This document shows positions 37,412 through 55,488 of a DNA stretch of 64,000 nt, in pieces. Below the pieces are notes generated by a model that made no database searches, was not told the origin of the DNA, and was given only the letters and a program-made list of their open reading frames with translations. The position numbers and the translations under genes were made by a program. This stretch comes from Escherichia coli (GTDB taxonomy: Bacteria; Pseudomonadota; Gammaproteobacteria; Enterobacterales; Enterobacteriaceae): assembly GCF_030013595.1 (NCBI RefSeq), contig NZ_CP122768.1; one strand, 5' to 3'. Each line of letters begins with the position of its first letter. Position 1 is the first letter of the stretch.

Positions 37412-38548
37412 ATGGGACAGAGTAAAAAATTGAATAAACAACCGAGTTCGCTTTCACCGCTGGTGCAATTGGCGGGAATTCGCAAATGCTTTGATGGTAA
37501 AGAGGTCATTCCCCAGCTGGATCTGACTATCAACAATGGCGAGTTCCTCACGCTGCTTGGCCCTTCTGGCTGCGGTAAAACAACCGTTCTTCGCCTGATT
37601 GCAGGTCTGGAAACTGTTGATTCCGGACGCATCATGCTGGATAACGAGGACATCACCCACGTTCCGGCGGAAAACCGCTATGTGAACACTGTTTTCCAAA
37701 GCTACGCACTTTTCCCCCACATGACCGTGTTCGAAAATGTGGCCTTTGGGTTACGCATGCAAAAAACCCCCGCTGCTGAAATTACGCCCCGCGTGATGGA
37801 AGCCCTGCGGATGGTGCAGCTGGAAACCTTCGCTCAACGCAAACCGCATCAGCTCTCTGGTGGTCAACAGCAACGCGTCGCCATTGCCCGCGCGGTGGTT
37901 AACAAGCCTCGTCTGTTGTTGCTGGATGAGTCGCTCTCAGCGCTGGATTACAAACTGCGCAAGCAAATGCAGAACGAGCTGAAAGCGTTACAGCGTAAGC
38001 TTGGCATTACATTCGTCTTCGTGACTCACGACCAGGAAGAAGCACTCACCATGTCGGACAGGATTGTGGTGATGCGCGATGGTCGCATTGAGCAAGACGG
38101 CACGCCGCGTGAAATCTATGAAGAGCCGAAAAACCTGTTTGTTGCTGGGTTTATTGGCGAAATCAATATGTTTAACGCCACTGTCATCGAACGTCTAGAC
38201 GAGCAGCGCGTACGCGCCAACGTTGAAGGCCGCGAATGTAATATCTACGTTAACTTCGCCGTTGAACCGGGGCAAAAACTGCATGTTCTGCTGCGCCCGG
38301 AAGACTTACGTGTTGAAGAGATTAACGACGACAACCACGCTGAAGGGCTGATTGGTTACGTTCGCGAGCGTAACTACAAAGGCATGACGCTGGAGTCGGT
38401 TGTTGAACTGGAAAATGGCAAGATGGTGATGGTCAGCGAATTCTTCAATGAAGACGATCCTGACTTTGACCACTCTCTCGACCAAAAAATGGCCATTAAT
38501 TGGGTAGAAAGCTGGGAGGTCGTACTGGCTGATGAAGAACACAAGTAA
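37412..38548 (+). CDS. potA: spermidine/putrescine ABC transporter ATPase
   Basis: 378 aa, Walker [10 protein letters not shown] and ABC signature LSGGQQQRV. Confidence 0.97.
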
Positions 38549-39395
38549 GTTCCAGAATGTAGTGATTGTCACTATTGTCGGTTGGCTTGTGTTGTTTGTC
38601 TTTCTGCCCAACCTGATGATCATTGGCACCAGCTTTTTGACCCGCGACGACGCCAGTTTCGTCAAAATGGTCTTTACGCTGGATAACTACACGCGTCTGC
38701 TCGATCCGCTCTATTTTGAAGTGCTATTGCACTCGCTGAATATGGCGCTGATCGCCACCCTCGCCTGCCTGGTGCTGGGCTATCCTTTTGCCTGCTTTCT
38801 GGCGAAGCTGCCACACAAGGTGCGTCCGCTGCTGCTGTTTCTGCTGATTGTTCCGTTCTGGACCAACTCATTGATTCGTATCTACGGGCTGAAAATTTTC
38901 CTCAGCACCAAAGGCTATCTCAACGAGTTTTTGCTCTGGCTGGGCGTTATTGATACACCAATTCGCATCATGTTCACGCCCAGTGCGGTGATTATCGGTC
39001 TGGTTTACATTCTGCTACCGTTTATGGTGATGCCGCTGTACTCCAGTATCGAAAAACTGGATAAGCCGTTGCTGGAGGCGGCGCGCGATCTCGGTGCCAG
39101 CAAGTTGCAGACCTTTATCCGCATCATTATCCCACTGACGATGCCGGGAATTATTGCCGGATGTTTGCTGGTGATGCTGCCAGCGATGGGCCTGTTCTAT
39201 GTGTCCGACCTGATGGGCGGTGCGAAAAACCTGCTGATCGGTAACGTCATCAAAGTACAGTTCCTCAATATTCGTGACTGGCCGTTTGGTGCAGCCACCA
39301 GCATTACGCTGACTATCGTAATGGGCCTGATGTTGCTGGTTTACTGGCGCGCTTCTCGTTTGCTGAATAAGAAGGTGAGCGATATAGATAATTAA
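38532..39395 (+). CDS. potB: spermidine/putrescine ABC transporter permease; extreme C-terminus differs from recalled K-12 and potC does not follow
   Basis: Multi-TM permease; ends ...[12 protein letters not shown]; next 230 bp non-coding then prophage genes; true start may be an internal GTG. Confidence 0.85.
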
Positions 39396-39622
39396 TCCTT
39401 TATATTCAATGAAATAAGTTGGTTTTTAAAGGGTTTTATTGTTGAAGGCAACCGCGTTGTGTCTTTCACCAAAATCAATCAGTTGCGTTCTGGTTTTGGA
39501 GAATGTTTTTTGAGGCTTTTTGTTAAAGCCTGTTATGCATTGCCTCAATTAATAACCGTTTCCCCAGCCCTCCCAACCTTCAAAAGTCGGGAGGGTTCTA
39601 AACACCAGTTGCGATTGATTTA

Positions 39623-40195
39623 TTAGCCAATACCAAACGCTCGGATTGAACCCAAATCCTCCAGATTGTTCAGATCCTCTTTCATTTCACGCTGACGGCG
39701 ATAAATCTCGTCATTGCGATCGACCTGAGCCTGCGCCATTGCTGCCGCCAGCTCCTGAAGCTGTGCCATTGTCAGAGTGACAAGGTTATTTGCTGCATCC
39801 CCCCATCCCAGCGTTGACCGCGTACCTGCAACCTTTGTCGCCATTGCCACGGGCGCAATACGACTTATTGAGTCTGCACCACCATTCCAGGTACGACCGT
39901 TCCATTCGAACGTGAACGGCTGCGCCTCCTGTTCTGTGCGCCATGCTTCGATTTCCTGGCGTTTGGCGGCTTTTGCTGCTTCCAGCATTTCAGGTGATAC
40001 AGTGAACGGGGCTATATCCCCCCATTTACCGCTTTGCAGCTCCTGCCAAATTTGCTGGCCTGTTGTTGCTGTGTCTTCTGGTGTAGATGTGTAGGGGATG
40101 AAATCTTTCATCCCCTCAAATAACACTTCACAGTCAATTGCGCCATTCTCCAGCCTGCGGGCGTTTTTGATTTCTTTTATTTTTATCCCATTCAT
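39623..40195 (-). CDS. putative tail fibre chaperone/accessory protein
   Basis: 190 aa directly downstream of a tail-fibre gene. Confidence 0.45.
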   Translation of the reverse strand: MNGIKIKEIKNARRLENGAIDCEVLFEGMKDFIPYTSTPEDTATTGQQIWQELQSGKWGDIAPFTVSPEMLEAAKAAKRQEIEAWRTEQEAQPFTFEWNGRTWNGGADSISRIAPVAMATKVAGTRSTLGWGDAANNLVTLTMAQLQELAAAMAQAQVDRNDEIYRRQREMKEDLNNLEDLGSIRAFGIG

Positions 40196-41598
40196 CAGGA
40201 AACTCTCACAAACAGACCGAAAATAAAATCGCTGGTCGCCTGAGTGCTGTTGCCCAGAGAGACATAGGCTCCCGAAAAGTGGCGTCCAGTATCCAGCACA
40301 TACCGTGGTGCTCCGTCATTCGACACTATAACAGCGCAGGGAATCAGAGTGCTGCCGCTTACGCTGTCACCACGTTTTATCGTATATTCATCAGTATTTG
40401 CTGCACGGTACGCGGCCTGAGTTAAGCCGCCAACTGCCACATCTCTGAATGGTACGTCGTACCACGGGCCAGCTATGTTATACAGCCATCTCGCACCATC
40501 TATCGCGGTTAAGTTTTGACTCAGGCATGTCCAGCGTATGTTCGTACTGTCCGCCCTGACCTCACAACAATACACGTCCTGATTAACCCCGTTAAAAATG
40601 ACAAACTTATCGCGCCTGTTTTGATTTTCATGCGTTGCTGTTTCCAGCATTTTTATCTCTACCTCTCCGCTAAAAACAACCCCTTCTATAATGTCCTTGG
40701 AATATGGGCCACCATATTGAACGACAAGATAGCGCCCCGGGGGAGTGGTCTGTACCCAAGAAGCAAATGTTGCTGATGTCGCGTATTTATCAAACTCCTT
40801 ACGTTGTGTGGGATACGCGCCATAACCGAAAGCTCCCGGAAGTGCCACACAACCTTCAGTTCGGTTGTAAATGTCTGTTTGTACATCCATCGTTGCAGCA
40901 CTTTTCAACCCCAGATTGTCTCGGGATTCCTGCTGAGCATCTTCCCCCTCTGCTGCAATTTCTGACAGGTGATTCGCCGTTTTCAGCGTTGCAGATAACG
41001 CAACATCAATATCATCTCTGGCCTGCTCTGCATCGGATGCGGCCTGTTTGGCGGCTTCAGCATCCTGCCTGACTTCTTCGGCGGTATCCTCAACCTGCGA
41101 GGCCAGCTGTTCAACGCGCTGCGTGTTTTCCTCCACAGCATTTGTATTCTGCTGAACATTATCTGCCAGCGTTTCAACCTGCTCTTTTATCAGAGCTGCC
41201 GCTTCAGCATGTTGCCCTGCCTGTCGTTCGCTTTCCGCTGCCGCTTCCGCGCTCTGCTGCGCCTGCACCACCAGTTCTTCGAACCGCTTAACAACATCTG
41301 GCTTCAGGTCGCCTTCATCGAGAGCGGTCAGGAAGTCGTTCAGCGTGCCGTGCTTTGAATCGTCGTAAACCGAAATATCACCGACACAATATTCTCTTTC
41401 AATACATGACCGAAGATAAACGTCATATCTTCCGGTCTGAGCCTCAAATGCATATTCTCCTGCCGGCCCCGTCACCACTGTTGCCACCGTTCTCATGACC
41501 ACTGCGGATGTATTCTGTCGGGCTTTCAGAATAATATGGTATCCGGACATGGGGAGTCCCGCACCATCCGTCAGCACACCCGAAATTAATACAGACAT
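40195..41598 (-). CDS. side tail fibre protein
   Basis: 467 aa; conserved prophage tail-fibre N-terminus, long coiled-coil, divergent C-terminal domain. Confidence 0.75.
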   Translation of the reverse strand: MSVLISGVLTDGAGLPMSGYHIILKARQNTSAVVMRTVATVVTGPAGEYAFEAQTGRYDVYLRSCIEREYCVGDISVYDDSKHGTLNDFLTALDEGDLKPDVVKRFEELVVQAQQSAEAAAESERQAGQHAEAAALIKEQVETLADNVQQNTNAVEENTQRVEQLASQVEDTAEEVRQDAEAAKQAASDAEQARDDIDVALSATLKTANHLSEIAAEGEDAQQESRDNLGLKSAATMDVQTDIYNRTEGCVALPGAFGYGAYPTQRKEFDKYATSATFASWVQTTPPGRYLVVQYGGPYSKDIIEGVVFSGEVEIKMLETATHENQNRRDKFVIFNGVNQDVYCCEVRADSTNIRWTCLSQNLTAIDGARWLYNIAGPWYDVPFRDVAVGGLTQAAYRAANTDEYTIKRGDSVSGSTLIPCAVIVSNDGAPRYVLDTGRHFSGAYVSLGNSTQATSDFIFGLFVRVS

Positions 41599-41622: not shown

Positions 41623-42711
41623 TTAACCAAAATAATTGACGCCTTTTTTCTTGCCACTGGCTTTCCCCTTTGCAGAAATATCCGTGGTCAGTGACAGATT
41701 CAGCGTAAATCCCTGTCCCGGTACCAGTGAAAACTCCACAGACTCAGCCTGCCAGTGATGGTCCTCACGCACACCAAATCCCTGCGTGACAAAACGCATC
41801 TCCGCCCCTGCTTTCAGCAGTTCCGGCCTGCAGGGCAACGTTATCGTCATCTGGCGTCCGACTTTCTGCACACGTTTAACCTTCGACTCTGCACAGTGTT
41901 TTGCGGTGCCCTGGTCAGGCTGGGTAAACGGATGCCGCTTATCTGTTGACTCCACGTCAACTTTAACTTCACGTGTGCGTCCGTCACGGGCATCAAAATA
42001 CCGGACCCCAACTTTCCCGCTCTTTTTATCCCCCTTCGCACCACCCGCAGCGCCCTGTCGCTCACCTTCACGATAATCCCAGTCTGATACCATACCCGGT
42101 GTAATGGTTATCTCAGGCGCATTTCTGCCCCCCGTACTCTGTGATGCCCCGTATTCCAGAAATAACCAGTAGCCATTGGTCGGTTTACTGGTGGCGCCGT
42201 ACATACCTGCAATGCGGGACAAGAGGGCAGCATCAGATTCTGATGACTGCATCACCCACGGGATATGAATATCAGCAAGCACCGATGAGACGCGCGCCAC
42301 CAGATTATTTTCAGTGGCGATGGTGTTCACCAGGTCGCCCAGTGTGATATCGCTGAAAGCCCGGGTTTTCAGTGCGGTCACGTCTGCGCCATGTTTTGAC
42401 GCATTCATGGGGGCTGCGGTGGCATAAATGGTGAGCCGGCGGGGAGGACCACCGCTTGCCACCTGACAGACGGTAAAACTGCCTTTATTGACCAGATTTC
42501 CGTTGAACCCCAGTCCCAGCGTTAGCACCGCGCCTTTCGGTGGTAACGCCAGCGTCTCGCTGAACAGCGTTATCATCAGTTCATCGGACCGCTTTGTGGC
42601 TGCACCATTATCGGTATATCGCAGTTCAGCCAGCCCCCGTTTCAGGGCCTTCGTGATATCCTGGCCTTCCGCTGTCAGGCTGAAATCCGGCTGATATTCA
42701 TTCAGTCCCAT
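41623..42711 (-). CDS. P2 gpD-like tail protein
   Basis: 362 aa; synteny after gpU/gpX. Confidence 0.85.
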   Translation of the reverse strand: MGLNEYQPDFSLTAEGQDITKALKRGLAELRYTDNGAATKRSDELMITLFSETLALPPKGAVLTLGLGFNGNLVNKGSFTVCQVASGGPPRRLTIYATAAPMNASKHGADVTALKTRAFSDITLGDLVNTIATENNLVARVSSVLADIHIPWVMQSSESDAALLSRIAGMYGATSKPTNGYWLFLEYGASQSTGGRNAPEITITPGMVSDWDYREGERQGAAGGAKGDKKSGKVGVRYFDARDGRTREVKVDVESTDKRHPFTQPDQGTAKHCAESKVKRVQKVGRQMTITLPCRPELLKAGAEMRFVTQGFGVREDHHWQAESVEFSLVPGQGFTLNLSLTTDISAKGKASGKKKGVNYFG

Positions 42712-42920
42712 AACTGAAACGTCTCCTTCACTTCCGGTTCATATACCCAGTCCGGCAACACGATTTCCACTCCCGACGGATAGACCGGACCAAGGTCAGC
42801 CAGCCCGGGATTGGCTTCCAGTACCGCCGCCAGTGACTGGTTAAGCCCGGCACTGCCATAGTGTCTCTGACAGATGTCATCCAGCATATCGCCGTCAGTG
42901 GTCCGCCAGTTTTTCGCCAT
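42702..42920 (-). CDS. P2 gpX-like tail protein
   Basis: 72 aa; synteny. Confidence 0.8.
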   Translation of the reverse strand: MAKNWRTTDGDMLDDICQRHYGSAGLNQSLAAVLEANPGLADLGPVYPSGVEIVLPDWVYEPEVKETFQLWD

Positions 42921-43389
42921 AGTATTTCAGCTCCAGTGTGAACGTTTTGTTCTTTGGCGCCCCGCCGGGAAGAAAGGACGTGGTGTTATCTGAATAGGCG
43001 GTTGCCACGAAATACCCCATCACATCGCCTGTACTTGAGACCAGTAACTGCGGGGCCGGATTGTCATCCACCATCTGAACCAGCGTATCAAGGGCATCCA
43101 TTCCCACACCGTCACGAAATCCCGCATGCACCATGCCTTCAAGGGTTATTGTTCTGGCCCCCTTACCGGTATACTGCAGCAGGTCGTTTTTTCCGATAAG
43201 CTGCTGTTCATCCCATCGCCATTCCATAGTGCGCTTCATGGCGTTATAGGCTGCCGTATCAATACTGAATTCAAACTCACCAAACGACAGCATGACGCGG
43301 GAGGCGACATCCGTTAATGAACCCACCGCATCCCATGCTTCACGTTCAAGCCGGTTTACGCCCCAGCCCAGCAAATCCACCATGTTCAC
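42895..43389 (-). CDS. P2 gpU-like tail protein
   Basis: 164 aa; synteny after tape measure. Confidence 0.8.
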   Translation of the reverse strand: MNMVDLLGWGVNRLEREAWDAVGSLTDVASRVMLSFGEFEFSIDTAAYNAMKRTMEWRWDEQQLIGKNDLLQYTGKGARTITLEGMVHAGFRDGVGMDALDTLVQMVDDNPAPQLLVSSTGDVMGYFVATAYSDNTTSFLPGGAPKNKTFTLELKYYGEKLADH

Positions 43390-45044
43390 CCCCAGAATGC
43401 ATCACCATCGGTCATGCGGGAACGCTGACCAAAATTAATATCTCCCAGATTTTTCGTTACCCTGTCTGCCAGTTGTCCGGCATCCTCGCCGGGCTTCTGG
43501 GTGATGTTAAATTCCGCCCGTATCTGATACGTGGGTTTTACTTCCACCCGGCTGATACTGCCGGGGGTATGCTGAAGCGCTGAAAGGCGGTCAGCCTCCC
43601 CCGATGCGGGTTCCTGACGAGTTTTCTGTAGTTGATCGCGGGCAGCGCGAACACGCTCCCTCGCCCCATCAAAATCAGGTTCTTCCTTCGGTCCCAGCAA
43701 AGGATCGAGAAATGCATCAAACTTTTTATCGTCATGGTTCCAGGGGAGATAACCGCGGGTGTCTTTATAAGCCTGTACAACCTGTTTCGTCAGCTCCGGA
43801 TTTTTCCTGAGCAGTTCATCAAACCATTCACCCTGACCGTTTTTCTGCGCCACCGCTCTCGCCAGCTCAGGCGAACCCATTTTTGCCAGATATTCCAGCA
43901 CCTCTCGCCGGTCCTCCCGCGAATCATCCGCCAGCCCCCACTCAATGGCTTTCTGCGTTATTCCTGCAAGAACTTTTCCGAATTTCCACATCCACTCGGA
44001 CAAATCGATCAACGCCGGCAGGGCATCATCAAGGATAAATGCCTGAATCTTCTCAAGGCCACCCTCCTTAAACCAAGCCGCAAGATCATCCGTCACCTGT
44101 TGGATACGTGGCGCAAGCTCATTACCCAGTTGTCCGCTGATTTCATCAATGGAAGAACTCAAAACATTACGGAGATTTGACAGCGCCACATGCCCCTGAA
44201 CTGCGCCATCAGCCCCTTCTTTTGTCACCAGGTTATAGCGTTTCTGCTCACTGATAAGCTCCCGGAAGGTTTTTCCTGACAGACGCATCCAGGTCAGAAT
44301 TTTATTGGCCTCCCCCCCAAACAGCGCATCTGCCATCCCCGCCGCCTGCTGCTCATTCTCCACCTGCAGTAAGCGATCAAACAAAAATTCGACCTGTTCC
44401 TGGTTGTTTTTTCCGGCCATTACGCCCGCTTTCAGCCCCAGTTTACCGAATACCTCCTGAATGGCTCCTTTGTCCGTGGCACCATTATCATCGTCAAAAA
44501 CCTTGTTCCGGTATTCCTCAAACAGATCACCAATGTTTTCGCCGTTTAACCCCATCTGACGGCCCAGTGAATCCCACGCCGCATAGGTTTCGTAATCCAC
44601 CCCATAACTCCGGGCTATCCCTGCCCGCTCTGCCGTTTCCGAATTCCGGTTCAGTACCGCGCTGGCACCTGCTGCCAGCGTCAGCCCGGAACCAACAGAG
44701 AGCCCGAGTCCGGTTTTAAGAAATGTCCCTGCCCGTCCTTTCCAGCGTTCCAGGCGCTCTGCCCGTTCAAGCTGGCGATTAAATCGCTCCTGCTCCGCTG
44801 CAGCATCATTGATTTTCCGTTTCAGCTTTTCATACTGCTTTCGCAGATCGGTAATATCCTGCCCTGCCAGTACGCCAGCCTGAATTTTTCGCTTCAGTAC
44901 ATCCTGCTGACGCGTCAGGCGTGCCACTTCCTGTGTCGCACCAGCCAGACCTCGCTTCAGCCCCTCTGTCGATTTTTTCCACGACGGGTCAATAGTGCCG
45001 CCGATCCGGATATTCGCTCTGAGGTTATCGCCCACCGTTGCCAT
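43386..45044 (-). CDS. tail tape measure protein (gpT-like)
   Basis: 552 aa, helical; between gpE/E' and gpU. Confidence 0.9.
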   Translation of the reverse strand: MATVGDNLRANIRIGGTIDPSWKKSTEGLKRGLAGATQEVARLTRQQDVLKRKIQAGVLAGQDITDLRKQYEKLKRKINDAAAEQERFNRQLERAERLERWKGRAGTFLKTGLGLSVGSGLTLAAGASAVLNRNSETAERAGIARSYGVDYETYAAWDSLGRQMGLNGENIGDLFEEYRNKVFDDDNGATDKGAIQEVFGKLGLKAGVMAGKNNQEQVEFLFDRLLQVENEQQAAGMADALFGGEANKILTWMRLSGKTFRELISEQKRYNLVTKEGADGAVQGHVALSNLRNVLSSSIDEISGQLGNELAPRIQQVTDDLAAWFKEGGLEKIQAFILDDALPALIDLSEWMWKFGKVLAGITQKAIEWGLADDSREDRREVLEYLAKMGSPELARAVAQKNGQGEWFDELLRKNPELTKQVVQAYKDTRGYLPWNHDDKKFDAFLDPLLGPKEEPDFDGARERVRAARDQLQKTRQEPASGEADRLSALQHTPGSISRVEVKPTYQIRAEFNITQKPGEDAGQLADRVTKNLGDINFGQRSRMTDGDAFWG

Positions 45045-45161
45045 AACACTGCTTCCTCTCTTCCGCCTCTGCCAGCATTATTGCCACAAAATCCTCATAC
45101 GGCAGTGCCATCACATCTCCGGGTGACCACCCGAACCATACTCCGGCACGCCGTATCGCCA

Positions 45162-45470
45162 TCAGGATGTTTTCTTCTTCCGCCGGACCGGCGGCAGCAA
45201 AAAAACATTAAACTGCCGCTCCAGGGCCAGGTAATCACACGCTTCCATGTTCATCATGTCTGCCGCGTCCATCCCGCACAGACCGGCAATCATATCCAGA
45301 TCAGCCTCTGCTTCCGGTTTGGTACTCCGGCGATGCAACAGACGATCGCGGACGGTGGGCGCACGCATGGTGACGTGCGTGATCGTCTGTCCTGATGCGG
45401 TGACATACGGCACGGATAACACAATTTCCACGCAGCTGGCAGGAACACTGTTTTTTTCCGACATAAGCAT
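45162..45470 (-). CDS. tail assembly chaperone gpE (E' by -1 frameshift ending near 45027)
   Basis: 102 aa; slippery site near 3' end; -1 frame extends about 58 codons to a stop overlapping tape-measure start. Confidence 0.8.
   Translation of the reverse strand: MLMSEKNSVPASCVEIVLSVPYVTASGQTITHVTMRAPTVRDRLLHRRSTKPEAEADLDMIAGLCGMDAADMMNMEACDYLALERQFNVFLLPPVRRKKKTS
45199..45205 (-). other. programmed -1 frameshift site (TTTTTTG on minus strand)
   Basis: Run of 7 A on + strand inside gpE; same heptamer as the classical P2 E/E' site. Confidence 0.7.
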
Positions 45471-45522
45471 CTCCTAAAAAAAGAAAAGGCGGCCTGAGCC
45501 GCCTGAATGGCAGATCCCCGGA

Positions 45523-46041
45523 TTAAACCCGGATGATTTTTTTCAGATCCGACAGAACATTAACGCCGTTAATACGACGTACAAATTCCTCCGGAATAAT
45601 GCAGATGGTTTCCAGGCCATCGACAGCCTGACGGTAATAACTCAGTGACATTTCCACTGTCACCGAAGCCTCTGCCTGTGATGTTGCCGGACGTGCATCC
45701 GGCGTGATACTGGTGATCATCCCCTGCAGGGTTTCCACCTGTCCGCTGGTCGCATTTCCCACCCGATAAGCCTGGCGCACAACAATCTCCGGCGAATAAA
45801 GCCCGGCCTGCAATCCCAGCAGCGTAAGCATGGCAACATCATAACCATAAATCTTAAACGAACAGGTCAGCGCTTCCATGCCGTCATCCACTGCCACCGG
45901 TGCATCCATTGCGCCGGTTTTGATATCCACTGTCGTGATATTAATGGCAGGCGGCGTGTATTCATGCGCACCCTGAAGGCGGATCCCGCCAGGAAGAAAT
46001 AACGCCCATGCACGCAACAGTTTTTTTTCACCCGTAATCAT
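45523..46041 (-). CDS. tail tube protein (FII-like)
   Basis: 172 aa; follows sheath. Confidence 0.9.
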   Translation of the reverse strand: MITGEKKLLRAWALFLPGGIRLQGAHEYTPPAINITTVDIKTGAMDAPVAVDDGMEALTCSFKIYGYDVAMLTLLGLQAGLYSPEIVVRQAYRVGNATSGQVETLQGMITSITPDARPATSQAEASVTVEMSLSYYRQAVDGLETICIIPEEFVRRINGVNVLSDLKKIIRV

Positions 46042-47513
46042 ACCGTCAGTTCCTCCAGCGCCAGTTTATTGTTAATCATTGCCCGCAGTGTCAGGCGCTC
46101 CAGTGGTGACTTCGGCCCAAAGTCATAATCGATATACAACTGCCCTGCCGCCAGGGTTTCTGCTGTATTCAGTTCATCATTCAGCCAGGCGCTGCCACCG
46201 TGGATCGCACCCAGATTTTTAAGCTGACGCATATAGGCATTAATGCTGCCAAGAATGTCGTCTGCCACATCCCGATCAAGCGGGCGATCGACATAAGGCA
46301 ACATGGCCTCCTGGATACTGTCCTCAATCACATCTGCAGTGCGACGTACCGGTTCAAAGCGCCACTGACTGTGGGATGTGCACAGACGGTTACCCCAGTG
46401 TTTAAAACCGTCATGGCGAATAATGGTGGAGATATTTTCCATGTTCAGCAGGTTTGCCGTGCAGTTCTGCTCCCCGAGAATAAACGTATCCACCTGCTCC
46501 AGACCGGTGATATTCATCACGTCCTGGTTTGATTTGGACCACCACCACCCTTTTTCATAATCAATACGGGCACGCAGCCCGGCAGCACGAGCCGAATATG
46601 GACGAAATACCGTTTGCCCGCTGTCATCCGTCACTGACACGCGCGGACGCAGCAGCTCCACACGTCCGCCAAATGACGCGCGCCGCTGAACCACATCCTG
46701 CGGCGTTGCCATTGAGGGCGAGTCAATATAGGCCACAGCCCGCAACTTCGCGGCATACGTTTCCAGCGCCTTTGCCACGCCATCATCCTCACTGTACCCC
46801 GTGGCAATGAGGATGCGCGGTTGATAGCCTGTCACGCCCTTACTTTCTGTCAGCGCCTCCATGGCCTGAATCACCGCCGCACGCTGTTCGGCCTCTTTCG
46901 CCTTTGCTTTACTTTCTGCGCGCACCACAATCACCAGCGCACCAGTCTGGTCAAAAATATCACGCAGGGCCGGGTATAATGTTCCGGCTGTGCCCAGTTT
47001 CCCCGCCTGAGTAATGGCCCCTGCCACCACCACCGGTGTGTTGACCGGGAACGCCTCATCTTCCCCGCCGGATAACGTCAGGCTGAACGGCGACACCACT
47101 TTATTTTCAGCGCCTCCTGCATTCAGGGTGCTGGCAGCCGCCGTCACAGGCGAATCCCCCAGCGCATTCACCACTTCAGTCACACAATCCACCGTGGCGT
47201 TAACCTGGCTGTGTTCGTCCGTCCCCAGTGTTATCGTCAGGGTCGTACCTTTCAGCGAGGCCACTGTCTGCGCGTTTTGTTCCGTGGCAGCCACGGCAAC
47301 AACCGAAATCTTATTACCGACCCGACCTTCCTGTTTCGCCGTGAAATCCAGCGCCGTTCCCAGCAGCCAGGAACCGGCTGTGCCGGAAGCGCACACACCA
47401 CCAGAGGCGTCCGGCGCTGTCCCCACCAGGCCAATCACTGCCGTGGAGATGGTTTGCACGGCAACCGTGCCTGTCGTCAGTTCAATGGTTTCAACACCAT
47501 GTAATCCGGACAT
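46038..47513 (-). CDS. tail sheath protein (FI-like)
   Basis: 491 aa. Confidence 0.9.
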   Translation of the reverse strand: MSGLHGVETIELTTGTVAVQTISTAVIGLVGTAPDASGGVCASGTAGSWLLGTALDFTAKQEGRVGNKISVVAVAATEQNAQTVASLKGTTLTITLGTDEHSQVNATVDCVTEVVNALGDSPVTAAASTLNAGGAENKVVSPFSLTLSGGEDEAFPVNTPVVVAGAITQAGKLGTAGTLYPALRDIFDQTGALVIVVRAESKAKAKEAEQRAAVIQAMEALTESKGVTGYQPRILIATGYSEDDGVAKALETYAAKLRAVAYIDSPSMATPQDVVQRRASFGGRVELLRPRVSVTDDSGQTVFRPYSARAAGLRARIDYEKGWWWSKSNQDVMNITGLEQVDTFILGEQNCTANLLNMENISTIIRHDGFKHWGNRLCTSHSQWRFEPVRRTADVIEDSIQEAMLPYVDRPLDRDVADDILGSINAYMRQLKNLGAIHGGSAWLNDELNTAETLAAGQLYIDYDFGPKSPLERLTLRAMINNKLALEELTV

Positions 47514-47567
47514 ACATTTCTCCCATAAAAAAACCGCCCTCAGGCGGTCAGATGATTAACTTCTTTT

Positions 47568-48113
47568 TCAGGTATTTTGTGGCTGCTCAGGCCAGCTAAT
47601 ATTGTTGTAAGTGGTCTTATCCGTAATAGCGCTGAAATCCATCGCCTGCAGCGATTTCGCGTAAATGCGGTACGCTTTGAGCTTTTCCCTGTCTTCGTCA
47701 CTGATTAATCCCAGCAGCAGGTCTTTTTCCCATTCGCTGGTCATGATGCTGACCTGTTTTAACAGTGCATCACGCTCATCTTCCGCTTTAAGTTTGTAGT
47801 CAAAAACAAATTCATCATTGCGGTAGAACCAGTATCCCGACGCCTCAATGCGACGATTAGCGGTAATATCCGGCAACTCAATCACACTTTTATTTTCCGG
47901 GCAGATTGAGGTGATGTCTTTTCCGACCCAGACCACTTCGCCAGTTTCAACATAAATAACTTTCAGAGTGTCTGGCTGAAATTTTTCCTGGGCTTCGTGC
48001 CATTCCTGACCATCATCGGAGAACAGCCACAATAAAAATTTATGCTGTCGTGCCAGCTGGTATTGCTCAATTGTTTTAGGGTTTTGTGCCGTAAGATTTT
48101 TTAAGTGCATCAT
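47568..48113 (-). CDS. tail fibre assembly protein (gpG-like)
   Basis: 181 aa downstream of tail fibre. Confidence 0.7.
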   Translation of the reverse strand: MMHLKNLTAQNPKTIEQYQLARQHKFLLWLFSDDGQEWHEAQEKFQPDTLKVIYVETGEVVWVGKDITSICPENKSVIELPDITANRRIEASGYWFYRNDEFVFDYKLKAEDERDALLKQVSIMTSEWEKDLLLGLISDEDREKLKAYRIYAKSLQAMDFSAITDKTTYNNISWPEQPQNT

Positions 48114-48115
48114 GA

Positions 48116-49465
48116 TTACAAACTCGCTACATTTCGCCAGACACCATTAATCAGAACCTGCACCGGGCGTGCATTGGCCCAGTCCACACTTTCACCGCCA
48201 TCAACACCACTCAGTAAATGACCTGATGGCGCATTTCCTCCGCGTCCAATACCAATGGCACCTCCCAGACGCACATCCTGCACACCACCTGTTCTGGTCT
48301 GGTAACGGGCATCAAAATTTCCGTAGTTTGATGGAACCATCTGCCCGTTTACGGCAAACGTTATGCTGTTATCCGTATTCCTCTGACTGTAAAAATGCCA
48401 GCCAGAATCATCACCAAGCTCTGCAACAACAGGCCTTGAGGAATTTCCCCATAGACTAAATCTTGCACTCTTCGTGGAAGAACTGTCACACGACAGCGTG
48501 AACTTTCTTAAATTGCCGGTCGAGAGATTTTCTAATGCCAGCACACCGTTTTTTGTAAAACGAAAGGCGTTGTGTCCCTCTGCAAACACATTAATAACAC
48601 CGCGTCCGCCCCACTTAAAACCGGTATTGCTATCACAGAGCGTGAGTGATTTTTCACCCAGATTGTTCTCATTACCGATGCCAATCCTGTCACCAATAAC
48701 CACATCGCCCTGGCGCAGGTTAATGGAAATGGGCCGCAGTGGGCCAATATCACCATTTTCTCCATGGTCTTCCTGCGTGGGAATGAAGTGCAGGTAATCT
48801 TCTGAACGACGAAAAATCAGGCCAAAAGCCTCGTTGAAAATCCTCAGCGCATTAACACCACGGATTTTCAGTTCCCCGGTCATGGTGTCACCATCACGCT
48901 GAACGGCATTTTTTGCCTTGTCCACCGTGGGTTTTAATCCGAGGTTTTCAACAGCCTCATCCTTGTCTTCCACATCCGAAAGATTCTTTTTTCGTTGCAG
49001 ATAGCGTCTGTCTCCGATTTCCTGAGTAATAATGGCCCTGTCCGGATCAACTTCCAGCACCACGTTTTGTGCGTGCGTCAACCCAAGAACCAGCGTCAGA
49101 ATAACTTCCTTGATAACGGAGTCCGTCTGGTCTGGTAAAAAGGTGTCGGGATAACGTCCGTACGCGATAAGCGTACCTCTGTCGCTGATCATCCCCAGTT
49201 CACGAAGGGTTTTACCGGGGTATGATTTACAGTCAATCACAATATCCCCGCTGATGAAGCCCTCCTCCACCGCACCGTCGGAAAAGGGTTCCTGCCCGAA
49301 TTCGCCGTACAACGATGTCATTGCTGCCATTTCATCCGGCGTGGATGGCAATGCACGCCCGCCCCCGTCACCAAGCAGAACATGCCGGACGGTCACGGTT
49401 TGCCCGTTCTGATATGCTGCTTCAATTTCTGCAGCGCCGGACGTTGTCAGAATCAGTCCATTCAT
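48116..49465 (-). CDS. tail fibre protein (gpH-like)
   Basis: 449 aa following baseplate I. Confidence 0.8.
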   Translation of the reverse strand: MNGLILTTSGAAEIEAAYQNGQTVTVRHVLLGDGGGRALPSTPDEMAAMTSLYGEFGQEPFSDGAVEEGFISGDIVIDCKSYPGKTLRELGMISDRGTLIAYGRYPDTFLPDQTDSVIKEVILTLVLGLTHAQNVVLEVDPDRAIITQEIGDRRYLQRKKNLSDVEDKDEAVENLGLKPTVDKAKNAVQRDGDTMTGELKIRGVNALRIFNEAFGLIFRRSEDYLHFIPTQEDHGENGDIGPLRPISINLRQGDVVIGDRIGIGNENNLGEKSLTLCDSNTGFKWGGRGVINVFAEGHNAFRFTKNGVLALENLSTGNLRKFTLSCDSSSTKSARFSLWGNSSRPVVAELGDDSGWHFYSQRNTDNSITFAVNGQMVPSNYGNFDARYQTRTGGVQDVRLGGAIGIGRGGNAPSGHLLSGVDGGESVDWANARPVQVLINGVWRNVASL

Positions 49466-50052
49466 ACACCTGCCTCACTCTGCCCGCCTGTGGGCACTGT
49501 CTTTGTTGTCACACCGGTACTTCTGATTTTTTCTGTCGCCATCACATAGCCGTAACCAAATCCACGCCCTGTGCTGTTCCCGTAAACGTGAATACTGAAC
49601 CAGCTGCGCAGATTTTTGGCACGGAGCACCGCATGCTTCAGATCCTGATGATCATTCATCAGCACCGGTAAATCTTTCTGCTCCACGTTCAGACGGAAGG
49701 TATACGGCTCCCCGGGTGGGGTCTGCTCATACCACTCAACAATCTGCGACCGGAAGGGACTGTCAGCCAGCGATGCCATCAGCGCCGCTTTAGTCCCTCT
49801 GTGGCGGTGGATGTATGCAGCACGTTTTATCGCAGACCGTTTTTCCGCCTCCGTCCAGTGTTCATTCCAGGTGTCCACCGCCATTTCCCAGGCCAGCCAT
49901 GGCAGCAATTCAGCAGGACATAAATCGGGATTTTTGACATAGCGGATCAGACATACTGCGATTTCCGCCAGCATATCACCGGCGGTACTGTCCACCACCC
50001 GCTCTGCCCGGCTGGCACTGACCGGCAGTATGCTCCTGATATCGTCATTCAT
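49462..50052 (-). CDS. baseplate protein gpI-like
   Basis: 196 aa; synteny. Confidence 0.8.
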   Translation of the reverse strand: MNDDIRSILPVSASRAERVVDSTAGDMLAEIAVCLIRYVKNPDLCPAELLPWLAWEMAVDTWNEHWTEAEKRSAIKRAAYIHRHRGTKAALMASLADSPFRSQIVEWYEQTPPGEPYTFRLNVEQKDLPVLMNDHQDLKHAVLRAKNLRSWFSIHVYGNSTGRGFGYGYVMATEKIRSTGVTTKTVPTGGQSEAGV

Positions 50053-50959
50053 CAGTTGTCTCCACCTTATTCAGCGTTACCTTGCGGCACCACGGTGCCT
50101 GCCCCATCGCAGGAACGATATCACTGCCCGGAGAGGTCAGATTCACCGTAATCACCCCGGTCTGGTGAAGGGCACCATCCATGCCAGAACGGGATGCCAC
50201 CGAGCCAATCAGGTGGACGCTGTCAGTGTATGACTGCAGCGCCTTGCGGGCATTTGCCATAACCAGTTCACCATCCAGTCCGTAGGGAATATGAATATCC
50301 GCCACCACATCGTAGGGAATAATTTCTGCCGTCCGGACACTGACAAAATCCGTCAGGGGACGGGTTTCATCATCACAGACTGATGCTGCCACCTTATCCA
50401 GCAGGGGTTGTGATGCAGTGCCATTTCCGGACCGGGATAACACATAAAGAAAAACACGCCCTTCCTGTGAATGCGTTTCCGGCCCGTAAGCCTTCACATC
50501 CAGCACATCAGGATCAGCACTTTGCGCAAAATAGTGGTACGCATTTTTCGCGCCGGCGGTGCTCAGCCGTGCCCATGACAACTGGATACGTTCGCGAAAA
50601 GCGTCATCATCTTCATACACCGCAGGCGTGGGCGGAATGGTGCTGTCATCTGCCGGGGTAATCACCAGACGCTGCACCTGAAAATTCGCACCAATCTGAT
50701 CCAGGTCGTTCCTCCGGGCACTCGCAAGCAATACACCCCGGACAGCATCATTGACCTGCTGGCGCATCAGCGCCACGCGAAAAGCCAGCGCCTCTGCCCA
50801 TTTATACGCCGGATCGGATTCCACCAGGGCCGAAAACAACGTGTCCAGCTCCTGATACTTCGTCACTATCTGAGTGACCAGCACAGCAGTGTCCGGCACC
50901 TCCACCGCATCCGGTACCGGTATCGCAGACAGATCAATAATTGCCTGAGACGTTGCCAA
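50045..50959 (-). CDS. baseplate protein J
   Basis: 304 aa; synteny. Confidence 0.9.
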   Translation of the reverse strand: MATSQAIIDLSAIPVPDAVEVPDTAVLVTQIVTKYQELDTLFSALVESDPAYKWAEALAFRVALMRQQVNDAVRGVLLASARRNDLDQIGANFQVQRLVITPADDSTIPPTPAVYEDDDAFRERIQLSWARLSTAGAKNAYHYFAQSADPDVLDVKAYGPETHSQEGRVFLYVLSRSGNGTASQPLLDKVAASVCDDETRPLTDFVSVRTAEIIPYDVVADIHIPYGLDGELVMANARKALQSYTDSVHLIGSVASRSGMDGALHQTGVITVNLTSPGSDIVPAMGQAPWCRKVTLNKVETTDE

Positions 50960-51290
50960 TTTTTATCTCCTCGAGTCGAATCGTATCCTGAGTTTCGTTA
51001 TTCACCCCGACAAGCGTCAGCCACGCGCTTCCTTCTCCTGTCCACGTCACTTCCACCCGCCGGAGAGTCAGGCGGGGTTCCCAGCGTTCAAGGGCGGTTA
51101 CCGTTTCGCGAACAATTCTCACCCGCGTGAAATCATCCTGTGGGTTATCAAGCAGACTGAAAAGTCTGCTGCCGTATTCCCTGAGCAGGACCCGGCTGCC
51201 GGCCGGTGTTGACAAAATATCAGTGACGGACTGGCGCAGATGTTCGTTACCGTGCAGATATCTGCCGGTGGCTGAATCAATACCAATCAT
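50934..51290 (-). CDS. baseplate protein W (GPW/gp25 family)
   Basis: 118 aa; synteny. Confidence 0.85.
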   Translation of the reverse strand: MIGIDSATGRYLHGNEHLRQSVTDILSTPAGSRVLLREYGSRLFSLLDNPQDDFTRVRIVRETVTALERWEPRLTLRRVEVTWTGEGSAWLTLVGVNNETQDTIRLEEIKIGNVSGNY

Positions 51291-51323
51291 GTTGTTTATT
51301 CCGGAAAAAGAACTGAAAGGAGA

Positions 51324-51947
51324 TTACATTTGCTGACCAGGCTGTCCGGTGCTGCCACCACTGTCGCCCCGGTGATTGTGACCGTTATAGACAATTCTGA
51401 TTTGACTCATCGTTCCGTGATAATCAGAAACCTCACCACCGACCATCAGATCCGCCTTAACCACCGCCTCAGCATTCATGGTTGCTTTACCCTGTACGGT
51501 CAGGGTATCTGTGATTTCTACCGGACCGTCCAGGGTTCCCCTGCCGGTAATTTTATAGCTGCCGCCTTCAGCCAGCGTGATGGACAGGGCATTAGCCTGA
51601 CGGTCGTAACGGATTTCCGTTCCGGTATCAAACAAAATAACATGTTCGTATTCACTGCCCTCAGGGACAGGAATGGCGTCAATATTGGCCCCCGGATACA
51701 CCCGACCGTTACGCAAATCGCCCGCCTCCGATATCACTGTAACGGCATCTCCGGGAGCCGGGTAATTACTGACCTGCATGTAGCGCCCGGACTGTACCTG
51801 AATCCAGGGCAACGGAGGCGAAAGCACATCCCCGATATCCACCCGAACCATCACCGGGCTACCCGGGATCACCTCGTCCACCACGCCGCGACGGACCATG
51901 TCCGCCACCCTGCGGCGTAACTCTGCCACTTCATCTGCCAGACTCAT
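51324..51947 (-). CDS. baseplate spike protein V
   Basis: Met at 51947 (MSLADEVAELRRR...) gives ~207 aa; longer track ORF overlaps upstream gene by ~100 codons. Confidence 0.8.
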   Translation of the reverse strand: MSLADEVAELRRRVADMVRRGVVDEVIPGSPVMVRVDIGDVLSPPLPWIQVQSGRYMQVSNYPAPGDAVTVISEAGDLRNGRVYPGANIDAIPVPEGSEYEHVILFDTGTEIRYDRQANALSITLAEGGSYKITGRGTLDGPVEITDTLTVQGKATMNAEAVVKADLMVGGEVSDYHGTMSQIRIVYNGHNHRGDSGGSTGQPGQQM

Positions 51948-52497
51948 CACCGGTGCCCTCTGTTTTCCAGATAAGACGATAATCCCGCTCATGTTTCTTG
52001 CCGGTTTCCGGAGCTTTCCCCAGCCAGACTTCCTGTAAAGGCGCACCAGCCGGAACCTCGAACGGATCTTCTCCGACAGGAATATCCTGTTCAAAAGAAA
52101 CGCGGAAAACGATGTAGTCATCCAGAAGCCGGTCGAAGGTATCCACCTCAGCATCAATAAAAACAGCCGGATCAACGTTATCCAGCCCGAACGTGGCCCC
52201 CTCAATCCAGTCAGATAAATCCATCGCCAGACAACGGGCAAAAATCTGCGGTTTTGGCACGTTTTCCGTCTTCCCGGCCCGGTCTGTCACCACAAACAGA
52301 TCACATTTCAGCGTGACCCGCGTCTGCCCGTCGGCAAACTGAGCCTTGTCCCAGCCCGGTACATCCACAAACACGGCAGGCGTCACCAGTTGCGTCACTT
52401 TTTCCGGATACTCATCGGCATCTTCCACCCAGGGAATTTGTTTCAGACTGTCAATCACCGCCTGATGCCAGGCGCCCATCATCAATGGCTCCATCAC
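51931..52497 (-). CDS. phage tail/virion protein (possible tail terminator, DUF1834-like)
   Basis: 188 aa; synteny between morphogenesis genes and baseplate. Confidence 0.45.
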   Translation of the reverse strand: MMEPLMMGAWHQAVIDSLKQIPWVEDADEYPEKVTQLVTPAVFVDVPGWDKAQFADGQTRVTLKCDLFVVTDRAGKTENVPKPQIFARCLAMDLSDWIEGATFGLDNVDPAVFIDAEVDTFDRLLDDYIVFRVSFEQDIPVGEDPFEVPAGAPLQEVWLGKAPETGKKHERDYRLIWKTEGTGDESGR

Positions 52498-53216
52498 TCC
52501 AGCCCCTTAAATACCCGGAATTTCAGTTCATGCTCAAAATTTTTCAGGATCAGTGCTTCCGCATCCGGAAAAACAAAATCCTCTATACGGTTCAGCATGG
52601 CTTCATAAATATCAATTTCCGCTTCACGCACCCTCCGTCGTCCGGATGCCTGTCGGATCAGTATCGTTTTCCTTTTTGATATACGTCCGTTACGATTTTC
52701 CGCTTCGAACTGGTTGATAAAGGCATCATCCGTTGACCAGGTGGTGACAGGCAGGGATTCCCCGGCAGGTTTAAAACTGATCTCCCGAGCCTTCCTGCGG
52801 CTGGAAGCTGGTGCAAAACGCCCCCGCTCATCGCGCAACTGATGGCGTTCGCCGCGTCGTCCCCCACTGATGCGTCCGCGCAGATCGCGTACTTTGATGG
52901 CGTTCAGACCGAACCATACCTTCGCCTCATCAAACTCATCACCGTTACGACGAATGATAAAATTATGCAGAACACGCTTTTTGATCATTTTCTGACTGCG
53001 TGGCGCAACCTGTTTTTTAAACTCTGCCAGGGCCTTCATCCGCAGTGCAGACGCGGCTCTTTTCAGCGCCACGCCCCAGGCTTTACGGATCTGACTTTTT
53101 GACCCACCCAGTTTAGCGATAATTTTCAGCACCTCATCTTCATCAATATCGACAACGAGGTTTCGTGCCAGCCGTCGCTGCCGGGCACTGCTTCGTTCAT
53201 GCTCTCTGACTGCCAT
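52494..53216 (-). CDS. virion morphogenesis protein (basic)
   Basis: Met at 53216 (MAVREHERSS...); Arg/Lys-rich; start choice uncertain. Confidence 0.45.
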   Translation of the reverse strand: MAVREHERSSARQRRLARNLVVDIDEDEVLKIIAKLGGSKSQIRKAWGVALKRAASALRMKALAEFKKQVAPRSQKMIKKRVLHNFIIRRNGDEFDEAKVWFGLNAIKVRDLRGRISGGRRGERHQLRDERGRFAPASSRRKAREISFKPAGESLPVTTWSTDDAFINQFEAENRNGRISKRKTILIRQASGRRRVREAEIDIYEAMLNRIEDFVFPDAEALILKNFEHELKFRVFKGLE

Positions 53217-53604
53217 AACGTTTACTCGGTCGTTCCGGTGCAGCAGGTGTATTTCTCCCGGGCTCTCCACGCGCAAGGGTGATGGTAATCACCCCCTGAC
53301 CCGCAGCGCCTGACTCATCCCAGCCGGGATCGACTACCTGATAGGGTTCGCCGTGGATCATGACCCTGTCATATTTTTTCAGACCGGCGGCCCATGCGCT
53401 CCGGGTAAATAACACGGGCGCAGTATCACGAATTTCGCCGCTGCCAGTGTTCATCCCGGTGTTATCTGCCGGGGCATCAAAAACGGCACGGATTTTTCTT
53501 TCCGTGCCGCCCGGATATATGCTGATTTCCGTCCCCATCGTATCCAGGATGATGTCATCCGCATCACTCATGGCCTGATCGAACAGATTATCGAACATCA
53601 TCAC
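53197..53604 (-). CDS. head-tail joining protein (lambda FII-like)
   Basis: N-terminus MMMFDNLFDQAMSDADDI resembles lambda FII (MADFDNLFDAAIARADETI). Confidence 0.7.
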   Translation of the reverse strand: MMMFDNLFDQAMSDADDIILDTMGTEISIYPGGTERKIRAVFDAPADNTGMNTGSGEIRDTAPVLFTRSAWAAGLKKYDRVMIHGEPYQVVDPGWDESGAAGQGVITITLARGEPGRNTPAAPERPSKRYGSQRA

Positions 53605-53966
53605 TCCCGGATTTTTTCTGCCAGACCGTCTGCCAGCAACGCGGGAACTGTGGCTTCATTAACCAGCACAACACTGGAGGCCCGGGCAAACATCAACATT
53701 TTTCCCGTCACAGCATCACAGGCTGGCATATGCGCCGTTTTCAGCATACGCACCCGGGCGAGTCCCTGCTCAGAATGCATTCCGTCGCCGGATGCATCGT
53801 TGCCCACCTCTTCCTTCCCCGTCTCCTCCCCATCGAATCCAGCGGCCTCCTCCTCCCATTCCGCCAGACGCTGCTCAAGATCGGCTTTTGAACCTGAAAT
53901 ATCTGCTTCACGCCCCAGAATCACTGCCAGTTCCTGCAAACGTTCAGTCATCTGCTCTTTTGTCAT
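53601..53966 (-). CDS. DNA packaging protein (lambda FI-like)
   Basis: Met at 53966 with GGGAGAG RBS; MTKEQMTERLQELAVILGRE resembles lambda FI (MTKDELIARLRSLGEQLNRD). Confidence 0.7.
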   Translation of the reverse strand: MTKEQMTERLQELAVILGREADISGSKADLEQRLAEWEEEAAGFDGEETGKEEVGNDASGDGMHSEQGLARVRMLKTAHMPACDAVTGKMLMFARASSVVLVNEATVPALLADGLAEKIRE

Positions 53967-54016
53967 CACATCTCTCCCGTGCGCTAAAGAAAAAGGCGGG
54001 AATATCCCGCCCTGTC

Positions 54017-55045
54017 TTATTTCACCTGAACCACCACAAACGCATCCGGATCCGGCAGCACCATCAACGGCGCAGACTGCGTCATTGTATATTCGCAACC
54101 AGGATCCCCCACTTCCTCCCAGTGTTTCGGATAACGAATCGCAGAGGTGATCCCTTCACTCAGCGCCTGATTATCCTGGATTGCGCCATAGCAACGGACG
54201 CCCTCCGCCTGAGTGTTTCCCAGAATCAGTGTACCTTCCGGCAGATAACGCTGTTCATCCCCGTTTTCGTCAACATACGTTGTCTTCGCCACCACGACAG
54301 CCAGATCGCCGTACCAGCCCTTAAAGGAAACCACGGAACCCAGGTCTTTCAGTGCGGTTTCCAGCTCAGATTTGGAGCCACGGCGGGTATCCAGTTTTTC
54401 ACGGAACAGTTTAAAACCGTTCAGCATACGCCAGACCGTGCCGTCCATAATCGCGATATTGATGGTACCGGAAGCAAAATCGCAGTACGCATCAAGATCA
54501 TGCGTCGGATCAAAGGTGTCAGCATTCTGCTTTGACCATTCGCGTCCGCCAGCCTGCGTAATGTTATTGGCGGCAGAACGCCCAAAATCCACTTCCACCG
54601 TCTCAAACTGCTCGCCGCTCATAGTGTATTTACCCTGCAGAACAGCACTGACTGCCTGCATTTCTTCCACCTGCACAATCGCCTGCTCTTCCTGTTTCAG
54701 GTTGTCCGTCAGAATACGCAGACGGCGGTAAGCCGGGTCATTAAGGCGGGCCGGATCTTCCCCCGGAAGACGTTCTACAGCCTGCTGATAATCAAAGCGG
54801 TGTTTTGGTTTTACATAACCGGGACGTAACACGCGGGTTTCACCACCACGGCTGCGCAGCACTTTGCCTGACACCACCGGAGACACATACGCCGCAACCG
54901 GTGTTTTGCCGGTAATTTTATCCAGCATGACTTCCTGAGTATGGAAAGTGATCGTGCGACGAAAGAACAGCTCAAGAAACAGCGCACGAAATTTCACTTT
55001 CTGCTCGGTGTACCCGAGTAACTGACGCGTGGTAAATAACCCCAT
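54017..55045 (-). CDS. major capsid protein (lambda gpE family)
   Basis: 342 aa; extended similarity to recalled lambda gpE (YTMSGEQF, SAPLMVLPDPD). Confidence 0.9.
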   Translation of the reverse strand: MGLFTTRQLLGYTEQKVKFRALFLELFFRRTITFHTQEVMLDKITGKTPVAAYVSPVVSGKVLRSRGGETRVLRPGYVKPKHRFDYQQAVERLPGEDPARLNDPAYRRLRILTDNLKQEEQAIVQVEEMQAVSAVLQGKYTMSGEQFETVEVDFGRSAANNITQAGGREWSKQNADTFDPTHDLDAYCDFASGTINIAIMDGTVWRMLNGFKLFREKLDTRRGSKSELETALKDLGSVVSFKGWYGDLAVVVAKTTYVDENGDEQRYLPEGTLILGNTQAEGVRCYGAIQDNQALSEGITSAIRYPKHWEEVGDPGCEYTMTQSAPLMVLPDPDAFVVVQVK

Positions 55046-55450: not shown

Positions 55451-55488
55451 TTTTCAGCCTCCTGATTTATCTGAATTCCGGATATCGC

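Follow-up and report, generated by a model that had tools for sequence, protein, structure and literature searches.

The 3′ end of potB in the analysed stretch of Escherichia coli DNA (64 kb; hereafter the window) is very probably the attL of a temperate phage that entered the gene by lambda-type site-specific recombination. When the window is compared with 5,426 complete E. coli genomes, homology to unoccupied sites breaks sharply between positions 39377 and 39378: the majority of the genomes match the window only to 39377, and homology to empty sites ends there in thousands of them. The break is read directly from the compared sequences and is no statistical pattern. The DNA from 39378 on is phage DNA that supplies the last five codons of potB, SDIDN, and its stop codon. 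The preliminary description of this DNA had proposed an integration at the potB/potC junction with a phage-supplied potB terminus, based on a potB tail unlike that of K-12 and on potC not following potB. These claims hold. SDIDN replaces ELE after residue 282, potC is absent from the window according to tblastn with PotC as the query (the sole match is a weak paralogous similarity to PotB), the terminal codons vary by phage lineage, and in relatives the sequence that ends at 39377 is found again before potC, behind the integrase gene. The alignment to an empty potB–potC site that had been advised was run as well, and defines a 14-bp core at 39364–39377. The features of the locus are listed in Table 1.

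Table 1. Features of the potB/prophage junction and the adjoining genes (positions in the window)
Feature	Position	Strand	Description
potA	37412..38548	+	ORF; ATPase of the spermidine/putrescine ABC importer; host context
potB, hybrid	38532..39395	+	287 aa, against 285 in K-12
potB, host-derived part	38532-39377	+	Codons 1-282
att core (identity segment) TGAATAAGAAGGTG	39364..39377	+	14 bp; last bases common with the empty potB-potC site
potB, phage-derived part	39378-39395	+	Five codons SDIDN plus TAA
Phage-derived attL arm, distal to the integrase gene	39378..39515	+	Delimited by alignment of eight lysogens
Block TTTATATTCA	39399..39408	+	21 bp past the core; invariant in 8/8 attL, flanks diverged
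IHF consensus match WATCAANNNNTTR (AATCAATCAGTTG)	39473..39485	+	Predicted; consensus search
Candidate integrase arm-type site TTTTGGAGAA	39494..39503	+	Invariant in eight diverged attL arms
Stem-loop	39566..39597	-	12-bp stem; just 3′ of the last late gene; also inverted repeat I1
DUF4376/tail-fibre-associated protein	39623..40195	-	190 aa; first prophage gene; PHROG 1141, E = 3.7e-84
Tail fibre	40195..41598	-	467 aa; lambda Stf-type N-terminal domain; PHROG 2636, E = 1e-172
Remaining late region	41623..64000	-	Uninterrupted; runs past the window end
P2-like contractile tail	within 41623..64000	-	gpD, X, U, tape measure, tube, sheath, second fibre and Tfa, baseplate
Lambda-like head/terminase	within 41623..64000	-	E, D, C-type protease, portal, W, A, Nu1
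Lysis genes	within 41623..64000	-	Endolysin, holins

The junction and its core

The core covers potB codons 278–282 and lies 9 bp upstream of the expected position of the potC ATG. It contains the motif AAGGTG(G), which is likely the ribosome-binding site of potC. An empty K-12-type site reads ...CTGAATAAGAAGGTG GAACTCGAATGATCGG..., with the potB stop codon overlapping the potC start codon as ATGA. The junction in the window reads ...CTGAATAAGAAGGTG AGCGATATAGATAATTAA..., and the sequence before potC in related lysogens reads ...CCGCCTTATGAATAAGAAGGTG GAACTCGAATG.... The identical 14-bp core precedes potC in UMNF18, CFT073, WP5-S18 and contig L030, and a one-base G/A variant of it does so in STEC383, O157 Z869 and GCA_002277075. 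Because three of the seven attR sites thus carry an A at core position 8, where their attL has a G, the exchange point inside the core is ambiguous. In O157/O145-type attL, the shared core is shortened to its first 12 bp (TGAATAAGAAGG). With the attR taken from relatives, the locus displays what is expected of a lambda-type attachment junction, i.e., a discrete end of homology within a core that is repeated at both ends of the element.

These sequences show the outcome of the integration. The phage attP and the host attB have the core TGAATAAGAAGGTG in common. After strand exchange, potB consists of codons 1–282 followed by the phage codons SDIDN and a stop codon, encoding a permease of 287 amino acids. 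In relatives, the potC–potD genes are found beyond the opposite end of the prophage, next after xis and int.

The hybrid PotB protein

The potA and potB genes overlap by 17 nt at the potB start, and the corresponding loci of UMNF18 and STEC383, which are 98.8–100% identical, bear the potA annotation. In the lysogen, potB is still a full-length ORF. Its product matches the NCBIfam equivalog PRK09497 with 548.3 bits (cut-off 348; residues 1–284 aligned). Residues 1–282 equal K-12-type PotB as well as chain B of PDB 8y5f, a solved PotABCD structure, except for W88C, and both alignments stop at 282. The W88C codon is TGC at 38793–38795; the substitution is seen in none of the nine genomes compared.

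As only the last three residues, at the extreme cytoplasmic C-terminus, are replaced, PotB has probably kept its function despite its phage-encoded end. Since the PotB chain of PDB 8y5g is listed as residues 7–279 only, the replaced tail may perhaps be dispensable for the folded complex, which is a faint indication at best. A residue near the PotB C-terminus is reported to affect uptake.

The attachment arm

The preliminary description had correctly recognized a non-coding stretch between potB and the tail-fibre genes, but had put its length at 230 bp; it comprises 227 bp (39396–39622). This gap probably consists mainly of the phage att arm, i.e., the integrase-distal arm of attP, as can be deduced from an alignment of the attL of eight lysogens, the window included, that belong to otherwise differing phage lineages. 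Similarity between the lineages fades past approximately 39515, and CFT073-type genomes match the window only to 39514–39518. Within the eight attL, four islands are conserved: the core, TTTATATTCA, a block with the IHF consensus, and TTTTGGAGAA. The core and the opposite arm also contain the TGAATA(W)A motif of TTTATATTCA, at a spacing of approximately 36 bp, and the block is a candidate protein-binding site. The IHF consensus is matched four times in the 64 kb, against 2.35 matches expected by chance, and the AAAATCAA-CA-TT block of the match in the arm is kept in all eight lysogens.

The block TTTTGGAGAA can be compared with the arm on the integrase side, which is near-identical over approximately 115 bp in seven lysogens and carries, in every lysogen examined (seven attR), three tandem copies of TTTTGGRGA at 60–95 bp from the core. 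In the window, this motif occurs four times, against 1.3 expected, and every copy lies beside an att core; the three copies outside the potB arm stand in tandem at 26531–26564, between the integrase fragment of another prophage and the icd 3′ end. The TTTTGGRGA repeats are presumed to be arm-type sites of the integrase. The attL arm would then hold an IHF-consensus site and one candidate arm-type site, and the int-proximal arm, which lies outside the window, three repeats. At the level of the sequence, each of the two arms thus has its arm-type repeats, and an IHF site is present as well. An inverted arm-type copy, TCACCAAAA (39466–39474), was considered as a second arm-type site and rejected, because the eight-genome alignment keeps only the overlapping AAAATCAA of the IHF-like block.

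Between the arm and the first prophage gene lies a stable stem-loop with a predicted RNA fold of −29.3 kcal/mol (z = −3.4). As it is not followed by a U-run, it is not a canonical intrinsic terminator. CFT073 has a hairpin of different sequence at the equivalent place. Scans of the attL gap for promoters and terminators gave nothing above shuffled expectation, and an Rfam search of 37000–41000 for small RNAs (E ≤ 1) gave zero matches.

The prophage in the window

Behind the arm, contiguous virion, packaging and lysis genes of a tailed phage directly adjoin the junction, and the late genes, from tail fibre to holin, are all ORFs of the expected size. PHROG matches cover the tail fibres, the gpD-like protein, the tape measure, sheath, capsid, large terminase and holin, and the late region is collinear with annotated prophages of relatives. 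The counterpart of the first prophage gene is annotated as DUF4376 in UMNF18 and STEC383, and an identical tail fibre gene on the contigs L012 and L013 carries the Pfam domain phage_tail_N. No stx gene is present in the part of the prophage that lies in the window.

Several E. coli genomes, porcine ones among them, contain this phage with its combination of a lambda-like head and a P2-like tail. Among deposited phage genomes, megablast finds no close cultured relative; the matches are confined to the lambda-like head/terminase genes at 75–77% identity and at most 23% of the query, and the best match of the sheath protein has 62% amino-acid identity. Exact matches of the YdaT protein occur in other lambdoid prophages, located at ompW, yccA and potC.

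The far end of the element

The right junction of the source genome lies outside the window, and was therefore deduced from relatives that are 99–100% identical in the overlap. Contig L020 is 99.9% identical to positions 54000–64000 and runs 10 kb past the window end, where it encodes Q, RusA, replication genes, cro and a cI-like gene. An intact potC directly right of position 64000, which the preliminary description had named as evidence against its proposal, is thereby contradicted, since L020 continues with phage genes there.

UMNF18 is the closest complete relative. Its junction agrees with the window at each of the 96 bases from 39330 to 39425 (100%), and its late region is 99.6% identical from terminase to lysis genes. 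Its far end consists of an excisionase gene, a gene for an integrase of the Arm-DNA-binding type, the core, and intact potC–potD. The UMNF18 element owes its length of 113 kb to a Mu-like prophage and a genomic island that interrupt it, and its portal gene is frameshifted. STEC383 contains a collinear prophage of approximately 46 kb, of which the two ends are as in UMNF18 and several head genes are frameshifted. The order excisionase, integrase, core and intact potC–potD is also found in STEC383, CFT073, O157 Z869, WP5-S18 and GCA_002277075. Overall, xis and int adjoin potC in all seven related lysogens examined, and one exact integrase allele is located upstream of potC in each of the seven contexts with enough flanking DNA. 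This potB-type integrase is homologous to lambda Int over its full length, arm-binding domain included (residues 26–370, E = 1.7e-54 against PDB 1z1b), and contains the Pfam domains Arm-DNA-bind_1 and Phage_integrase.

Occurrence and alternative explanations

A genome was counted as occupied when its junction covered 80% or more of a 96-bp probe with 39377|39378 at its centre. By this measure, 1,614 of the 5,426 complete genomes, about 30%, carry the junction type at potB. An intact potB–potC site is present in 3,800, and the two classes together comprise nearly all genomes. Three types of PotB tail were encountered, each giving a protein of 287 residues: SDIDN in the window, UMNF18 and STEC383; SELDD in CFT073, strain 3502 and bR120; and TEIDN or TEIDD, combined with a V to A change at residue 282, in O157, O145 and CFSAN027343. 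Directly behind potB, all eight lysogens compared (window included) have foreign DNA and not potC. In five of them this DNA carries phage tail-fibre genes or fragments, and in the three of O157/O145/CFSAN027343 type it carries espK or a bfpT-regulated chaperone gene.

These data bear on the view that SDIDN is an allele of the host potB gene, which the phage adjoins through an unrelated rearrangement or through a deletion that removed potC. The location of potC cannot be seen from the window alone and PotB bears a second change, W88C, both of which suit such a view. It is nevertheless very improbable. The tail-coding sequence lies beyond the sharp end of homology, all relatives examined have an intact potC–potD past the far end of their prophage, and, because the tail varies between phage lineages at a constant length, a host allelic variant is effectively excluded. 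Prophage-free strains with the same potB C-terminus, which the preliminary description had proposed to look for, were not encountered among the 3,800 genomes with an intact site, as all of these match the K-12 junction sequence encoding ELE. Even less credit can be given to an assembly artefact, i.e., a chimeric join of potB and phage reads: UMNF18, a complete genome, has the same junction base for base over the 96 bp, this type of junction recurs in all those complete genomes counted above, and at least 24 independent contigs encode the exact PotB protein next to these phage genes. Nothing specific points to such an artefact, apart from the general observation that tail-fibre regions are often assembly break points and that L020 appears to start inside the prophage.

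It is possible, if somewhat doubtful, that the element is a decayed remnant unable to excise, which would make the junction a fossil instead of a working attL. Decay is seen in comparable elements, as illustrated by the nested Mu and island insertions and the frameshifted portal gene of UMNF18, by the frameshifted head genes of STEC383, by O157 strains that keep only effector-laden remnants at attL, and by the integrase of the other prophage in the window, which is cut by IS10. By analogy with the interrupted UMNF18 element, the element of the source genome may be rearranged or defective too. Against decay, the late genes in the window are all open at their expected sizes, the motifs of the attL arm are intact, and L020 goes on with complete-looking Q, replication and immunity genes. 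This question concerns present activity only; the explanation of how the junction formed is left untouched by it.

The split pot operon

With the prophage in place, potCD is no longer joined to the potA promoter. In lysogens, potC keeps its own ATG, with AAGGTGG 7 nt upstream, within the core. Moreover, the int-proximal arm places an in-frame ATG upstream, creating a mini-ORF of 8 codons, MNKKVELE, that ends on the potC ATGA overlap. The ribosome-binding motif of the core or the ATG of the mini-ORF might have been selected because it allows potC to be translated. In UMNF18, CFT073 and O157, int ends 166 bp upstream of potC and has the same direction, whereas STEC383-type phages have a divergently oriented pair of DUF2335 genes between int and potC. 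A simple sigma-70 scan upstream of potC found no promoter for potCD above chance or shuffled expectation.

It is presumed that potCD is transcribed from the phage side, by int read-through or from a weak promoter. Because potCD is severed from the potA promoter, a wider proposal has been considered, in which half of the PotABCD spermidine importer depends for its expression, in approximately 30% of E. coli genomes, on such transcription, by read-through from int/xis or from an unrecognised promoter in the conserved 115-bp int-proximal arm. Polyamine uptake in lysogens would then be reduced or coupled to the state of the prophage. This wider proposal is to be regarded as unlikely on present grounds. 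Phages of this kind have been described as disrupting potAB-CD (PMC9453080), and in the literature searched no treatment of potCD expression in lysogens was found. The expression of these genes in lysogens would be a modest but real physiological point.

Comparison with known systems

Insertion between potB and potC is a published integration locus, and the phenomenon as such is known and ordinary. The prophage Phi-CFT073-potB resides at this locus (PMC4632033, PMC3573123), as does PP_potB in O157:H7 clade 8 (PMC9997748). Stx2 phages with one integrase type have been reported at potC, where they split potAB-CD (PMC9453080, PMC8065619, PMC8705337). Insertion at a gene end with a terminus supplied by the phage is usual for integrative elements (PMC7192596), and the Rac prophage likewise replaces a host gene end, at ttcA (PMC4632033). 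A description of the potB att site at base level was not found spelled out in the literature searched. What is added here is such a description, of the core as well as of the candidate arm-type repeat and the IHF match, together with a count of occupancy. For annotation, the left boundary of the prophage in the window (prophage B) is fixed at 39377|39378, the C-terminus of PotB is explained as phage-encoded, and potC–potD is to be sought at least 45 kb rightward, behind xis and int. As about 30% of complete genomes are occupied, the att description could aid the automated delimitation of prophages.

Phi-CFT073-potB, a prophage of 44 kb in uropathogenic CFT073, uses the same attB and shares the 14-bp core and the arm motifs. 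Its xis protein is identical (WP_000003742.1) and a homologous Arm-DNA-binding integrase is encoded beside potC, both statements being drawn from the far ends of the potB-phage relatives. It also adds a five-codon tail to potB, which reads SELDD instead of the SDIDN in the window. The similarity is limited to the site: past approximately 140 bp from the core, both sequences are unrelated, and the CFT073 phage is a siphovirus-tailed lambdoid one, its tail being lambda-like and non-contractile (J, L, K, tape measure and others), whereas the tail of the window prophage is P2-like and contractile. PP_potB of O157:H7 and the Stx phages (Stx2a, 2d, 2e and 2g) reported at ‘potC’ occupy the same locus and have the same integrase type, and in O157 Z869 potC is preceded by xis, int and the core. 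The O157/O145-type attL combines the 12-bp core with the TTTATATTCA, IHF-like and TTTTGGAGAA blocks, and its tail reads KKATEIDN.

The likeness to lambda comprises the full-length Int homologue, the short core, the three tandem arm-type repeats on the int-proximal side, which resemble those of the lambda P′ arm, and, in the distal arm, an arm-type repeat in addition to an IHF consensus, although the potB sites are deduced from conservation. Both systems differ in the arm-type sequence, TTTTGGRGA at potB, and in the core, and the target is a protein-coding gene instead of the intergenic gal–bio attB. In this respect, the potB phages follow the principle of e14 and phage 21 at icd and of Rac at ttcA, which likewise insert within a gene and carry a substitute for its 3′ or 5′ end. 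The window itself also holds an icd-linked prophage; its integrase fragment shares 46% identity with the potB-type Int and is followed by three tandem TTTTGGGGA repeats before the icd 3′ end. The insertion at potB additionally splits an operon, into potAB and potCD, whereas icd is monocistronic and undergoes no such split.

The potB Prophage at Its Junctions

PotB in the window carries a cysteine at position 88 (W88C), its codon being changed from TGG to TGC, while a tryptophan is found at this position in all nine other genomes compared. At least 24 contigs (46 index blocks) encode exactly this W88C protein, and on every W88C contig among the matches listed the same prophage adjoins potB. The substitution is therefore a lineage marker and not a sequencing error.

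At attR, the integrase-side junction next to potC in related lysogens, the phage arm contributes an ATG that shares the reading frame of the last potB codons. The resulting mini-ORF (ATG AAT AAR AAG GTG GAA CTC GAA TGA), the stop codon of which overlaps the potC ATG, is kept in all attR sites of the seven lysogens (7/7), and no obvious ribosome-binding site lies ahead of it. It may be conserved simply on account of the core-type integrase site. Some potB phages carry a divergently oriented gene pair, encoding a DUF2335 protein (155 aa) and a 67-aa protein, between the int stop codon and the conserved att arm, approximately 300 bp upstream of potC. CFT073, UMNF18, O157 Z869 and WP5-S18 are without this pair, which resembles a moron insertion at the attP edge.

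Insertions in the Related and Neighboring Prophages

In UMNF18, the closest complete relative, the potB prophage is a 113-kb composite (1298097-1411041; loci L001, L003, L006). The phage tRNA cluster contains an insertion of approximately 34 kb, an integrase-bearing island with cah, restriction-modification genes and CP4-like genes; a further insertion, a Mu-like prophage, lies in the tail-fibre region at the second tail-fibre module.

The integrase of the other prophage in the window, which is linked to icd, shares 46% identity with the potB-type integrase and is interrupted by an IS10-type element. No N-terminal fragment of this integrase is present elsewhere in the window. Positions 1-3000, at the window's left edge, are low in G+C (0.33-0.43), and NCBIfam gives no match for the ORFs 808-1233, 1549-2070 and 2422-3246.

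Features of the prophages and their junctions (window positions unless a related locus is named)
Feature	Position	Remark
Interrupted icd-prophage integrase region	24354-26640	
IS4-family transposase, 402 aa	24354-25562	ends IS10-like
int remnant of icd prophage	25605-26519	Int residues equivalent to 79-368 only
Three tandem TTTTGGGGA repeats	26531-26564	between int remnant and icd 3' end
icd	26633-27883	minus strand
W88C codon of potB	38793-38795	
Module 1: lambda Stf-type fibre and DUF4376 protein	39623-41598	after gpD, adjoining attL
Module 2: P2 gpH-type fibre and Tfa	47568-49465	within baseplate cluster
DUF2335 pair	L002 46943-47591	also L026, L028-L034
attR mini-ORF	L002 47880-47903	and equivalents

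Virion Type of Prophage B

Prophage B, the lambda-type prophage at the potB 3' end, has two tail-fibre modules, and its part of the window (39378-64000) combines a lambda-like head and terminase with a P2-like contractile tail. The deposited phage set contains no close cultured relative with this head-tail combination. At the nucleotide level, deposited phages match at most 23% of this region, in head genes only and at 75-77%; the best sheath matches in this set, from Hafnia phage yong2 and Citrobacter phage Chris1, reach at most 62% identity.
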